This document shows positions 62,136 through 63,192 of a stretch of DNA of 64,000 bases, piece by piece. The stretch is from positions 190,917 to 254,916 of the IMG/VR virus record IMGVR_UViG_3300045988_171772; one strand, given 5' to 3'. Position 1 is the first letter of the stretch. The number at the start of each line of letters is the position of its first letter. The DNA comes from a virus. The position numbers and the translations under genes were made by a program. The notes below the pieces were generated by a model. The model made no database searches. It was not told the DNA's origin and worked only from the letters and a program-made list of their open reading frames with translations.

Positions 62136-62584
62136 GGACAAAAATGTTATGCCGACATTAAACTCCTTGAACTGCCTGGAAAATCAATAAGATCTATATT
62201 TGTCCCATACATACACAAATTTCTTGTCGGATCTTATTTGACAATCAGCAGCTAAGGGTCAAAATATAAGCTTCATTATGATAGAAAGAATATGAAGTTT
62301 GACCAAAGTTCAACGACTATCGAAAGGGTATCCTATAAGAGCAATCTTTAGGAGAGTAACTGAGTAGAGTACCGCCATGATTCATAAAGATGGACGTGGT
62401 TAGTATCTTGGTGAGATGTAACCAAGTGTAATTCTATTAAAGGGAAGCGGGGAGTACGAGGTTGAAAGGCATCAACCGTTTATGTCCCTATGGGATATAT
62501 GAAGTAATGATATAGTCTAAGCACAAAACTACGAAGAGATTTTAGTCTTCTTATTAAGAAAGACTAAAAAATGACGTAGCATCG
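62136..62584 (+). ncRNA. group I intron 1 (449 nt, ORF-less, IA-like)
   Basis: P1 pairing with a U.G at the 5' splice site. P7 halves are GACTAT (62315-62320) and ATGATATAGTC (62509-62517), matching the Tetrahymena and T4 td J8/7-P7 consensus. The terminal G is at 62584. Splicing restores RYNFSTRNIV ~ RVDYSGRSVI in frame. The intron is homologous to intron 2. Confidence 0.7.
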
Positions 62585-62853
62585 ATAATTTTTCGACAAG
62601 GAACATCGTCAGTGCTTCATCTGGCGAGCTTCGGAGCAATGAAGTTGACATTTGCTATCTCGATGCGATGGAGCTTTTCCGTTATGAGCTGACAAATCTC
62701 TATGCAAAATTGAAATCTTGCACTGTTGAGGAAGCTCAGCAAGCTTGGTATAGAGCAACTCGTTTCTTCGATCCTGTCTTTTATGGGATCATGAAGTATA
62801 TCATAGCTCATAATAAGGATGATATTGGAATCATCATCAACCGTAACCCGAGT
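62585..62853 (+). CDS. rpoC: RNAP beta-prime N-terminal half, exon 2
   Basis: It encodes (Y)NFSTRNIVSASSGELRSNEVDICYLDAMELFRYEL...IIINRNPS, matching [33 protein letters not shown]...NRAPT. Confidence 0.7.
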
Positions 62854-63192
62854 GGACTGAAAGTTATGCTCGGCTTGGATAGTAATATCCTTGTGCCTCT
62901 CATTGGCGTTCTTTGAGAGGAATCCCTCGTGAATTGCTGGAATACTCAGACGGTTATAATATCTGAAGGAATCAGCAGCCAAGGTCTTTCTTGTATTTTA
63001 TATAAAAGAAAGATAAGGTTCATCGACTATCGAAAGCTATATAGAAGATCTGTAATCTTCTTGAAGATAAGTCTCTTATAAAAGAGATGAAGCGAGTAAA
63101 GTAGGGAGTAATGCTTCCGAAGTGCGAGGGCACCTATAGTGAGATCAGGTGTATGATATAGTCAGCTAATTAAAAGATTCGAATGTTAAGCG
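62854..63192 (+). ncRNA. group I intron 2 (339 nt, ORF-less, IA-like)
   Basis: The exon end CCGAGU pairs with GCUCGG at 62868-62873 (6 bp, U.G at the splice site). P7 halves are GACTAT (63025-63030) and ATGATATAGTC (63155-63163). The terminal G is at 63192. The intron shares GGAC..AAAGTTATGC, AATCAGCAGC.AAGGTC and CGACTATCGAAAG blocks with intron 1. Confidence 0.75.

Follow-up and report, generated by a model that had tools for sequence, protein, structure and literature searches.

Two ORF-less group I introns predicted in the most conserved motifs of a jumbo-phage RNA polymerase β′-N gene

An RNA polymerase gene interrupted twice

In the stretch of viral DNA analysed here (64 kb, hereafter the window), a reading frame for the N-terminal part of an RNA polymerase (RNAP) β′ subunit breaks off twice and resumes after a spacer each time, which raises the question of whether the three blocks encode one protein or several. 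An earlier note, made from the sequence alone, had proposed that both spacers are group I introns without an ORF. Our analysis makes it very likely that two such introns, IVS1 and IVS2, interrupt the β′-N gene and that splicing gives a single 491-aa protein. The three exons, at the coordinates of Table 1, add up to 1476 nt (916+269+291), and the splice coordinates and intron lengths that had been proposed all agree with the sequence.

The joints of the spliced protein read ..IIAGR|YNFSTRNIV.. and ..NRNPS|INFGSF.., and the bacterial counterparts of R-YNFSTR and NRNPS-INFGS are RVDYSGR and NRAPTLHRLG, respectively. Across both joints the protein aligns without a gap to β′-N of the AR9 non-virion RNAP (nvRNAP; 7s01_d, E 4e-39); it is likewise colinear, with no gaps, with phiKZ gp55 and with bacterial and archaeal β′/A′, and a Pfam search returned RNA_pol_Rpb1_2. 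On these alignments the predicted product is the N-terminal half of a jumbo-phage multisubunit RNAP β′, nearest to the AR9 and phiKZ non-virion enzymes. Among the three exon blocks, only the first is preceded by a ribosome-binding site; exons 2 and 3 have neither a start codon nor a Shine–Dalgarno sequence at their 5′ ends, and their first in-frame ATGs lie at 62668 and 63211. Between the gene and the convergent downstream gene, a long hairpin followed by a T-run is probably the end of the transcript. A promoter and terminator scan of the β′-N gene returned nothing exceeding shuffled sequences, the hairpin having been missed because the loop limit of the scan is 8 nt. No match among GenBank phages was obtained by megablast with 12 kb of the window, and an IMG/VR search for relatives with a single protein found none.

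Table 1. Features of the β′-N gene and its two introns, in window coordinates
Feature	Position	Strand	Details
Shine–Dalgarno AAGGAGG	61205..61211	+	8 nt 5′ of the β′-N ATG; sequence inspection
Exon 1	61220..62135	+	916 nt; codons 1-305 and first base of Tyr306; tblastn, protein colinearity
IVS1, ORF-less group I intron	62136..62584	+	449 nt; phase 1; starts GGACAAAAATGTTATGCCGAC, ends ..CATCG
IVS1 internal guide	62146..62156	+	GUUAU 62146-62150 for P10; GCCGAC 62151-62156 for P1
IVS1 P3	62162-62166 / 62451-62455	+	helix mapping
IVS1 P7 5′ strand GACUAU (G-binding helix)	62315..62320	+	partner AUAGUC 62512-62517
IVS1 P8	62460-62465 / 62472-62477	+	helix mapping
IVS1 terminal G (omega-G)	62584	+	sequence
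Exon 2	62585..62853	+	269 nt; 3′ end ..AAC CCG AGT
IVS2, ORF-less group I intron	62854..63192	+	339 nt; phase 0; starts GGACTGAAAGTTATGCTCGG, ends ..AAGCG
IVS2 internal guide	62863..62873	+	GUUAU 62863-62867 for P10; GCUCGG 62868-62873 for P1
IVS2 P3	62924-62929 / 63125-63130	+	helix mapping
IVS2 P7 5′ strand GACUAU	63025..63030	+	partner 63158-63163
IVS2 P8	63131-63135 / 63147-63151	+	helix mapping
IVS2 terminal G (omega-G)	63192	+	sequence
Exon 3	63193..63483	+	291 nt including TAA stop; holds catalytic AADFDGDQ motif
Long hairpin, then T-run	63526..63585	.	arms GGGTATATCCAAGA and TCTTGGATATACCC; between β′-N gene and convergent downstream gene

Detection and structure of the introns

Covariance models recognise both spacers. 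Against Rfam RF00028, the search that had been suggested beforehand, IVS2 scored 49.8 bits (E 2.4e-11 locally, 1.2e-9 over the whole window) and IVS1 28.9 bits (E 4.3e-5 and 2e-3), the sole Rfam matches in the window. The E-values are thus significant for both, but the scores fall below the curated gathering score of 50 bits, narrowly for IVS2 and by far for IVS1, and for this reason neither intron is listed at the gathering threshold, where Rfam gave nothing; the matches appeared in a permissive scan. For a second covariance model, R1, we used 64 unrelated IMG/VR copies of the same intron family, none of them from a β′-N gene. With filters off, R1 matched the 64 kb only twice, at IVS2 (73 bits, E 2e-14) and at IVS1 (52.7 bits, E 6e-10); this setting misplaced P8/P7′ of IVS1 into the P7.2 insertion, whereas the default, banded search aligned IVS1 correctly over its full length, at 75.6 bits (E 6.8e-14). 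No further intron was found in the window with Rfam or R1.

Within the window, CGACTATCGAAAG occurs at 62314 and 63024 only, and exact matches to ATGATATAGTC are confined to 62507 and 62517's start site and to 63153. The core motifs that the earlier note described as shared are present in both introns, but the P7 halves are separated by 193 nt in IVS1 and 129 nt in IVS2 rather than by 140-190 nt. Such short motifs by themselves are not above chance in shuffles; the significance of the introns rests on the covariance models.

In both introns we could map a P3-P8 core with the P3/P7 pseudoknot, J8/7 and the P7 G-binding helix. P7.1 and P7.2 hairpins are located between P7 and P3′, as in the phage IA2-type family, whose core reads UCA(A/U)CGACUAUCGAAAG ... 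GAGUAGAGUA ... GAUAUAGUC, and covariation across the intron family backs P7.1, P7.2 and P8. We take both introns to be IA2-like, a label that stems from comparing their architecture with that of IA2 introns and not from a subgroup-specific model. The helices of IVS2 comprise P1, P2, P2.1, P3-P8 and P7.1/P7.2, and for its P9 no convincing helix could be drawn. IVS1 is the odder of the two: P2 is absent, P4 contains a bulged C, and compared with compact relatives it carries ~190 nt of peripheral insertions, large in P5, P6, P7.2, P8 and P9, which could impair its folding.

In IVS1 the guide pairs 6/6 with GUCGGU, the last six bases of exon 1 (..GCC GGT CGG T), and in IVS2 it pairs 6/6 with CCGAGU, the last six of exon 2; in each P1 the splice site is marked by U.G, as had been noted. 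For P10, the adjacent GUUAU pairs with AUAAU, the first five bases of exon 2, in IVS1, and with AUUAAC of exon 3, one U bulged, in IVS2. Both introns also end in the G that the earlier note had pointed out. Its statement that neither carries a homing-endonuclease ORF holds as well: both have stops in all six frames with no internal ORF above ~60 aa, and homologues of the HNH ORFs of AR9 (g271) and of two relatives (L013, L136), or of the ORF in the intron of a third (L010), are found nowhere in the 64 kb. The L010 ORF (126 aa) matched no Pfam or PHROG family.

Occupancy and covariation among relatives

Among relatives of the window (designated L001, L002 and so on), the introns show presence/absence polymorphism at fixed sites, as is seen for mobile group I introns. 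At the position of IVS1 (site A) an intron is present in the window, L138, L139, L141, L006, L007 and L140 and absent from L001-L005 and L009-L014; at that of IVS2 (site B) one is present in the window, L001-L003, L006, L009 and L010 and absent from L004, L005 and L140. The close relatives L001-L003 (98.5% aa identity) are without IVS1, and their junction, GGTCGGT|ATAATTT, is precisely the one that ligation of the exons would give; both introns are missing from L004 and L005 (88% identity), and the predicted intron-less junctions were confirmed exactly in L001 and L004. From 62096 to 62703 the window and L001 have zero differences, a comparison that is uninformative for co-conversion given a background divergence of ~2%.

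Where a site is occupied, guide and exon change together. The P1 exon/guide pair is CCGAGU/GCUCGG in some copies and CCAAGU/GCUUGG in others, with exon and guide co-varying in L010, and the P10 pairs AUUAAC/GUUAU, AUCAAC/GUUGU and AUAAAC/GUUUAU track the wobble base of the Ile codon in L006, L009 and L010; at site B, covariation of P1 and P10 with the exon is seen across these three relatives. Across four homologues of IVS2, 52 pairs are paired in 98.6% of cells, compared with 35-42% for slid versions of the structure, and double (compensatory) changes occur at 12 pairs. Because MAFFT aligned the site-A introns out of register in P3-P5 and P8, no pair counts were taken from that alignment, and site-A helices were compared one sequence at a time. 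In this comparison P3, P4, P5, P6a, P7.1, P7.2 and P8 of IVS1 are preserved with differing sequence in L006 and L140. Taken with the covariance-model matches and the gap-free protein alignment, the compensatory helices, the guide/exon covariation and the exact intron-less alleles bear out the proposal of two group I introns without an ORF in conserved β′ motifs.

On this reading, a single pre-mRNA would be produced with one start and one ribosome-binding site. Each internal guide would pair with the last six exon bases to form P1, placing U.G at the cleavage site, and an external guanosine held in P7 would attack the 5′ splice site. The GUUAU guide would then position the start of the downstream exon (P10), and the terminal G would take the place of the external guanosine in P7 as the exons are ligated, restoring R-YNFSTR and NRNPS-INFGS in one polypeptide of 491 aa. 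We infer that both ribozymes are active in vivo. Not every intron copy in the clade need be functional, the site-A intron of L006 appearing to end in A instead of G.

Origin of the two introns

Family members with HNH endonuclease genes are found in relatives, at these sites or at neighbouring ones, and the window copies are for this reason most likely endonuclease-less derivatives of such introns, or were carried along by earlier homing. Their insertion also destroys the endonuclease target sites, as a side effect. The earlier note also raised interference between co-infecting phages, which is speculation for introns that lack a nuclease; protection of the two sites from the endonucleases of related introns is the most that they would offer.

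The earlier note further viewed the two introns as paralogues and suggested an intragenic duplication. Membership of one large family stands, and a looser link between site-A and site-B lineages is seen in relatives, but the two window copies are far apart. They are 62% identical in the catalytic 3′ domain (115 core columns), IVS2 ranks only 128th of 138 among the neighbours of IVS1 and, from the side of IVS2, IVS1 stands only at the median. Blastn of one against the other gives no match at E<=1e-3, although dozens of unrelated loci match the IVS1 core at 80-89%. Their peripheral architecture differs too, with P2 and P2.1 in IVS2 only and the P5, P6, P7.2, P8 and P9 extensions in IVS1 only. 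A recent origin of one from the other by intragenic duplication or transposition is hence improbable, despite the 5′ leader that they share (GGAC(A/U)(A/G)AAA..GUUAUGC), which among 151 family copies is confined to β′ introns. This leader consists mostly of the P10 guide and the first bases of P1 (its G.U and C-G pairs), and is largely forced by the similar target sites, both GU|AU(U)AA. The two introns appear to be homologous only as members of one large phage intron family, and not to be recent duplicates.

The looser link deserves separate mention. The site-B leader of L010, GACUAAGAAGGUU(U)AUGC, is nearly the same as the site-A leaders of L007 and L140, and the nearest 3′-domain neighbour of the L006 site-A intron is the L010 site-B intron (84%). 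It is conceivable, if still unlikely, that one lineage in the clade switched between sites A and B, both GU|AU(N)AA; in such a switch the P1 guide alone (4-6 nt) would be adjusted to the new site, with the 5′ leader and the P10 guide retained. This pattern is expected of ectopic insertion via reverse splicing, not of endonuclease homing. If the switch took place, ORF-less copies could persist by making both sites immune to the HNH endonucleases of sister introns in co-infecting relatives.

Decayed introns or a split gene

Another explanation is that one or both introns, most likely IVS1, have decayed and no longer splice, leaving a pseudogene or a helper-dependent gene. The low Rfam score of IVS1, its bulged P4, missing P2 and many insertions would fit such decay, as would the related L006 intron without a terminal G where the reading frame demands one, and ORF-less introns are expected on the way to loss. 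Yet all three exons are intact, and the two-intron allele is found in four independent metagenome contigs at 97-100% identity. IVS1 is identical in L138 and L141, the latter obtained from human gut, and its 11 substitutions relative to L139 are mostly neutral or compensatory, sparing or compensating the helices. P1, P10, P3, P7, J8/7 and the terminal G of IVS1 are all intact, and its full-length score with R1 is 75.6 bits. We regard decay as quite improbable.

Jumbo-phage β and β′ genes are naturally split into N and C halves (PMC7598289), and gene prediction yields separate ORFs at 62668-62916 and 63211-63483, so that the gene could in principle be truly split, its three blocks separately translated and the spacers retained. 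The boundary at site A, however, falls inside a codon, neither block 2 nor block 3 has a start codon or a Shine–Dalgarno sequence at its homologous start, the spacers are significant group I matches, and the gene of close relatives is uninterrupted with exactly the predicted junction, which makes this reading barely credible. A group II intron was dismissed, the only match being RF02001 at E 0.99, as was an intein, since no frame of either spacer is free of stops.

Comparison with known phage introns

Spliced group I introns therefore remain the preferred reading, and as such the pair is real but ordinary, since the same kind of interruption is already annotated in this gene in Bacillus phage AR9. 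In GenBank, AR9 g270 is a join of two exons that flank the HNH gene g271, and a preprint on Staphylococcus jumbo phages describes the AR9 gene as intron-disrupted (10.1101/2020.12.14.422802). The AR9 case resembles ours in gene (among solved structures, that of AR9 matches the spliced protein best), in the choice of a universally conserved motif and in intron family, the AR9 intron stretch scoring 103.5 bits with R1. It differs in having a single intron at another site (site C, inside D(F/Y)DGD), whereas the window has two, at RxxxSxR and NRNPS; the AR9 intron encodes an HNH homing endonuclease whereas the window introns have no ORF, and the host proteins are ~27-30% identical.

The introns belong to a very widespread phage family, members of which have settled time and again in the most conserved codons of the β′-N gene. 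By blastn, nt 170-236 of IVS1 (J6/7-P7-P7.1-GAGUAGAGUA) are 79-84% identical to cores in ~100 Staphylococcus phage records and in Listeria phage LPJP1; IVS2 gave one weak match to phages. The placement of P7.1/P7.2 between P7 and P3′ is shared with IA2 introns of Twort/K-like Staphylococcus and other Gram-positive phages and with T4 td-type introns. The IA2 phage introns sit in recombinase, ribonucleotide reductase, DNA polymerase and orf142 genes, whereas those of the window sit in RNAP, and the peripheral elements differ.

No new kind of element or mechanism is revealed, but the locus is a further well-documented example of two patterns already established: jumbo-phage RNAP genes are intron hot spots, and one phage intron family keeps inserting at the most invariant codons (RxxxSxR, NRxPS, DFDGD). 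For annotation, three ORF fragments are to be merged into one essential polymerase subunit. Public gene calls give β′-N as truncated proteins: among the best 120 homologues, 39 end early, most at three recurrent intron sites. The occupancy series (none, A only, B only, both, with or without an HNH gene) is also a data set for intron gain, loss and endonuclease turnover.

Two further systems are close in kind. The PhiPA3 gp210 intron is a group I intron at invariant catalytic residues of the virion RNAP β gene, and experiments have shown that the HNH endonuclease it carries nicks the gene of a competitor (Birkholz et al. 2024, PMC11620839). As in the window, a group I intron interrupts a jumbo-phage multisubunit RNAP gene, here for a different subunit; unlike the PhiPA3 intron, the window introns cannot serve as a weapon because they are without a nuclease. 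In the Jug gut jumbo phages, many small ORF-less group I introns split essential genes, and metatranscriptome junction reads confirmed splicing for about half of the predictions (PMC12880540). The window phage is likewise an uncultured gut jumbo phage; the Jug genomes are 360-402 kb with split terL, nrdD and DNA polymerase genes, and the window clade comprises contigs of ~230-300 kb with introns in RNAP β′-N.

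Gene model and intron structure

The reading frame of the jumbo-phage RNAP beta'-N gene is broken after ..IIAGR, resuming 449 nt on, and after ..NRNPS, resuming 339 nt on; the intervening sequences are here called IVS1 (62136-62584) and IVS2 (62854-63192). Joined, the three exons span 1476 nt and encode a 491-aa protein, reproducing both the breaks and the restored frame described in the earlier note, with IVS1 in phase 1 (T|AT, Tyr) and IVS2 in phase 0. In each spacer all six frames are closed by stop codons, and G+C content is a little lower than in the exons (36-39% versus 42%); neither a start codon nor a ribosome-binding site was found at the homologous starts of exons 2 and 3. 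The spliced protein matches the non-virion RNAP beta' N-terminal subunit of Bacillus phage AR9 (7s01_d, E 4e-39), phiKZ gp55 (7ogp_A, E 9e-16) and cellular beta' subunits, and carries RNA_pol_Rpb1_2 (Pfam) over its DFDGD region; its best cultured match is in Yersinia phage phiR1-37 (29% identity). Alignments to RNAP subunits cross both joints gap-free, with iiagr|ynfstrniv set against AR9 imgsrinfsarnvi, bacterial llgkrvdysgrsvi and archaeal lsgkrvnfsartvi at the first, and nrnps|infgsf against AR9 nrnptisigs and bacterial nraptlhrlg at the second.

We conclude that IVS1 and IVS2 are very probably group I introns removed by splicing, a reading already proposed from the sequence and supported here by covariance-model matches, covariation and intron-less alleles. 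In both, GUUAU lies directly 5′ of the P1 guide and forms P10 with the opening bases of the following exon; P2 is absent from IVS1. Because the two introns share this P10 guide and both 3′ exons begin AU(U)AA, skipping of exon 2 is conceivable; joining 62135|63193 would yield ..AGR-Y-stop, a truncated protein of 306 aa. The title of a paper cited in PMC11620839 refers to exon skipping in a three-intron gene of Twort.

Features of the window and of intron-bearing relatives (coordinates prefixed by a locus name are those of that locus)
Feature	Coordinates	Strand	Remarks
Shine-Dalgarno AAGGAGG	61205-61211		strong; 5′ of beta'-N ATG
beta'-N start codon ATG	61220
beta'-N exons	61220-62135, 62585-62853, 63193-63483
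IVS1 P1	62130-35 / 62151-56
IVS1 P3	62162-66 / 62451-55
IVS1 P4, P5, P6, P6a, P6b			P4 with one bulged C; long P5 arm
IVS1 P7	62315-20 / 62512-17
IVS1 P7.1, P7.2, P8			P7.2 bears extra arm; second hairpin with P8
IVS1 P9 and tail	last base G62584		P9 encloses 13-bp hairpin
IVS2 P1	62848-53 / 62868-73		short P1 extension
IVS2 P2, then P2.1			P2 with GUAA loop
IVS2 P3	62924-29 / 63125-30
IVS2 P4, P5, P6, P6a			present
IVS2 P7	63025-30 / 63158-63		three hairpins separate P7 from P3′
IVS2 P8	63131-35 / 63147-51
IVS2 3′ end	last base G63192		short tail
RNAP beta-like gene (Rpb2_6)	16326-18848	(-)	uninterrupted
gyrA	30031-32577	(-)	uninterrupted
gyrB	32599-35016	(-)	uninterrupted
2480-aa ORF	39193-46635	(-)	15 'phage tail repeat like' (PTR) units
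1673-aa ORF	41482-46503	(+)	antisense to 2480-aa PTR ORF
Second PTR protein	46799-49402	(-)	adjoins 2480-aa PTR ORF
Polyphosphate-kinase-like protein	56403-58586	(-)	PP_kinase_C_1, PP_kinase_C, PLDc_2
L006 site-A intron	L006:3917-4226		ena:ERZ16268233 scaffold_29
L010 126-aa ORF	L010:4359-4739		in P6 loop of site-B intron
L136 insertion, ~2.3 kb	L136:3779-6096		intron 3′ domains at 5406-5565 and 5860-6030; 495-aa HNH_3/HTH ORF

Covariance-model evidence

RF00028 was the sole Rfam family matching anywhere in the window. The search suggested in the earlier note returned both introns with significant E-values (IVS2, 49.8 bits, local E 2.4e-11, whole-window E 1.2e-9; IVS1, 28.9 bits, local E 4.3e-5, whole-window E 2e-3), though both scores fall below the 50-bit gathering score, so that a default Rfam scan comes back empty. 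The J6/7-P7 motif UCA(A/U)CGACUAUCGAAAG occurs in more than 119 IMG/VR contigs, and GAUAUAGUC (J8/7-P7′) follows it ~90-210 nt downstream in 138 of 151 copies. A covariance model of this phage family, R1, was built from an alignment of 64 diverse IMG/VR copies, excluding the beta'-N gene, in which P7.1, P7.2 and P8 show clear covariation. Run over the whole window with filters off, R1 matched the two introns only (IVS2, 73 bits, E 2e-14; IVS1, 52.7 bits, E 6e-10), and with banded alignment it matched IVS1 end to end at 75.6 bits. No further intron was found in the window by Rfam or R1; a match at 17560-17648 (13.7 bits, E 0.27) was too weak to be credible. In its core, IVS1 shares 79-84% identity with introns of ~100 Staphylococcus K/Twort-like phages, and likewise with that of Listeria phage LPJP1, each compared over the core. 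Some IMG/VR viral contigs hold three to five copies of the family within a few kb (L091, L117, L070, L075), and the five R1 matches in L070:1256-3101 indicate that it can densely colonise single genes or operons.

Intron occupancy in relatives

Protein searches recovered uninterrupted 491-aa homologues at 88% identity together with many truncated ones, most of which stop at three recurrent places: site A after IIAGR (the IVS1 position), site B after NRNPS (the IVS2 position) and site C inside NADFDGD. A few stop elsewhere, for example near aa 425 or aa 409. All insertions in the tabulated relatives were matched by R1, which also scored 103.5 bits on the annotated intron of AR9 g270, the non-virion RNAP beta'-N gene.

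Occupancy of intron sites in related viral loci
Locus	Protein identity to window	Site A	Site B	Remarks
L138, L139, L141	97-100%	occupied	occupied
L001-L003	98.5%	empty	occupied	site A is GGTCGGT|ATAATTTTTCG, exactly as predicted for ligated exons
L004, L005	88%	empty	empty
L006	87%	occupied (310 nt)	occupied (287 nt)
L009	85%	empty	occupied
L140	54-61%	occupied	empty
L010	60%	empty	occupied	126-aa ORF in intron
L013	53%	empty		intron with HNH_3 at neighbouring site, apparently 2 nt 5′ of site B
L135	46%	empty	empty	site C holds an ORF-less intron
L136	47%	empty	empty	two family copies and 495-aa HNH ORF between aa 425 and 436

The presence or absence of IVS1 among ~98%-identical strains shows recent gain or precise loss; its flanks carry no co-conversion signal either way. 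The two separate 3′ domains in the L136 insertion indicate two adjacent introns around the NADFDGD motif. The 126-aa ORF of L010, which has no Pfam or PHROG family and no recognisable endonuclease motif, could be either a new intron ORF or a degenerate one. The site-A intron of L006 seems to terminate in A rather than G: its 3′ splice site, UUUA|AUAAC, is fixed by the reading frame together with a perfect P10 (GUUAU with AUAAC) and lies 12 nt downstream of the G aligned with the terminal G (omega-G) of the window intron, where splicing would create a stop codon. An omega-A, decay of the intron or a fault in the assembly could each account for this.

Relationship between the two introns

The two introns had been described as homologous paralogues. 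They do belong to the same family, though not close within it, and a recent intragenic duplication is improbable. The 5′ string common to both is, among 151 family copies, confined to beta' introns; seven of its bases, however, are the P10 guide and the first two P1 positions, and these are dictated by the targets, since both sites read GU|AU(U)AA. Against duplication, the 3′ domains are 62% identical over 115 model columns, IVS2 ranks 128th of 138 among the neighbours of IVS1 (IVS1 being at the median of those of IVS2), the pair yields no blastn match at E<=1e-3, and their peripheral elements differ. With dozens of unrelated loci, blastn does align the IVS1 core, at 80-89%.

Among the relatives there is a sequence-level hint that an intron switched between sites A and B. 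The site-B intron of L010 (L010:4171-4935) starts AGACUAAGAAGGUUUAUGC and the site-A introns of L007 (2931-3221) and L140 start GGACUAAGAAGGUUAUGC; they share a near-identical leader, GACUAAGAAGGUU(U)AUGC, with different P1 guides (UUGG at site B, CGAC at site A), and their 7-nt loop, UAAGAAG, is identical without function dictating it. The L010 site-B intron is also the nearest 3′-domain neighbour (84%) of the L006 site-A intron, with which it shares the unusual P4 variant CAGCAACC. At least two intron lineages occupy site B, the window type and the L010 type.

Covariation of helices and guides

For IVS2 and its homologues in L001, L006 and L009, 98.6% of 208 cells were paired, compared with 35-42% once the structure was slid by 1-3 columns, and 12 pairs had changed on both sides (P2, P2.1, P5, P6, P8). 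Every IVS1 core helix is kept with different sequences in the compact homologues of L006 (310 nt) and L140 (259 nt), as in P3 (ACUCC/GGAGU, CCCU/AGGG, CCUG/CAGG) and P8 (GGUUGA/UCAACC, GAUCGA/UCGAUC, UAUAGAUAU/AUAUCUAUA); most of the 11 substitutions between L139 and IVS1 are G.U-neutral or compensatory (e.g. A129G with U163C). That IVS1 is crippled seems very unlikely. The guides also change with the exons: in P1, exon CCGAGU faces guide GCUCGG, and in L010 CCAAGU faces GCUUGG; in P10, exons AUUAAC, AUCAAC and AUAAAC pair with GUUAU, GUUGU and GUUUAU, respectively. Such co-variation with synonymous exon positions would be hard to explain other than by RNA splicing.

Mobility and comparison with known systems

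Neither window intron encodes a protein, and no homologue of the endonucleases of related introns was found in the 64 kb window. The introns cannot home alone or attack a competitor, which makes the suggested relevance to interference between co-infecting phages speculative. They do disrupt the two sequences that, reasoning from the general homing mechanism (PMC11620839, PMC12908238), sister-intron endonucleases would be expected to recognise.

Introns in jumbo-phage RNAP genes have already been described, so the present case adds to a known pattern. According to a preprint on Staphylococcus jumbo phages, RNAP subunit genes of jumbo phages are often intron-disrupted, the AR9 nvRNAP beta'-N gene being named among them and AR9 gyrA being disrupted as well (10.1101/2020.12.14.422802). 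In PhiPA3, a virion RNAP beta gene contains a group I intron that bears an HNH gene and acts in phage-phage competition (PMC11620839). The 'Jug' jumbo phages of the gut have a mean of 18.5 small group I introns per genome; where predictions were compared with metatranscriptomes, about half were confirmed (PMC12880540). In GenBank, AR9 g270 is annotated as a join of two exons that flank the HNH homing endonuclease g271, and tblastn places its intron in the D(Y)DGD motif; gene and intron family are the same, whereas the window introns lie at sites A and B and are ORF-less. New here are the phage clade, the sites and the two ORF-less copies. What the case offers is correct gene models and an orderly natural series of occupancy states, not a new mechanism.

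Gene content of the window

No close GenBank phage was found for the window at the DNA level; near-identical contigs are present in metagenome assemblies, one labelled human gut. The remaining gene content, with an RNAP beta-like gene, gyrA, gyrB, a 2480-aa tail-repeat protein and a polyphosphate-kinase-like gene, fits a jumbo phage; the window contains no tRNAs. The 1673-aa antisense ORF is probably a by-product of repeat composition. The polyphosphate-kinase-like gene adjoins the beta'-N gene in the relatives L004, L006, L009 and L013 too, a conserved arrangement.
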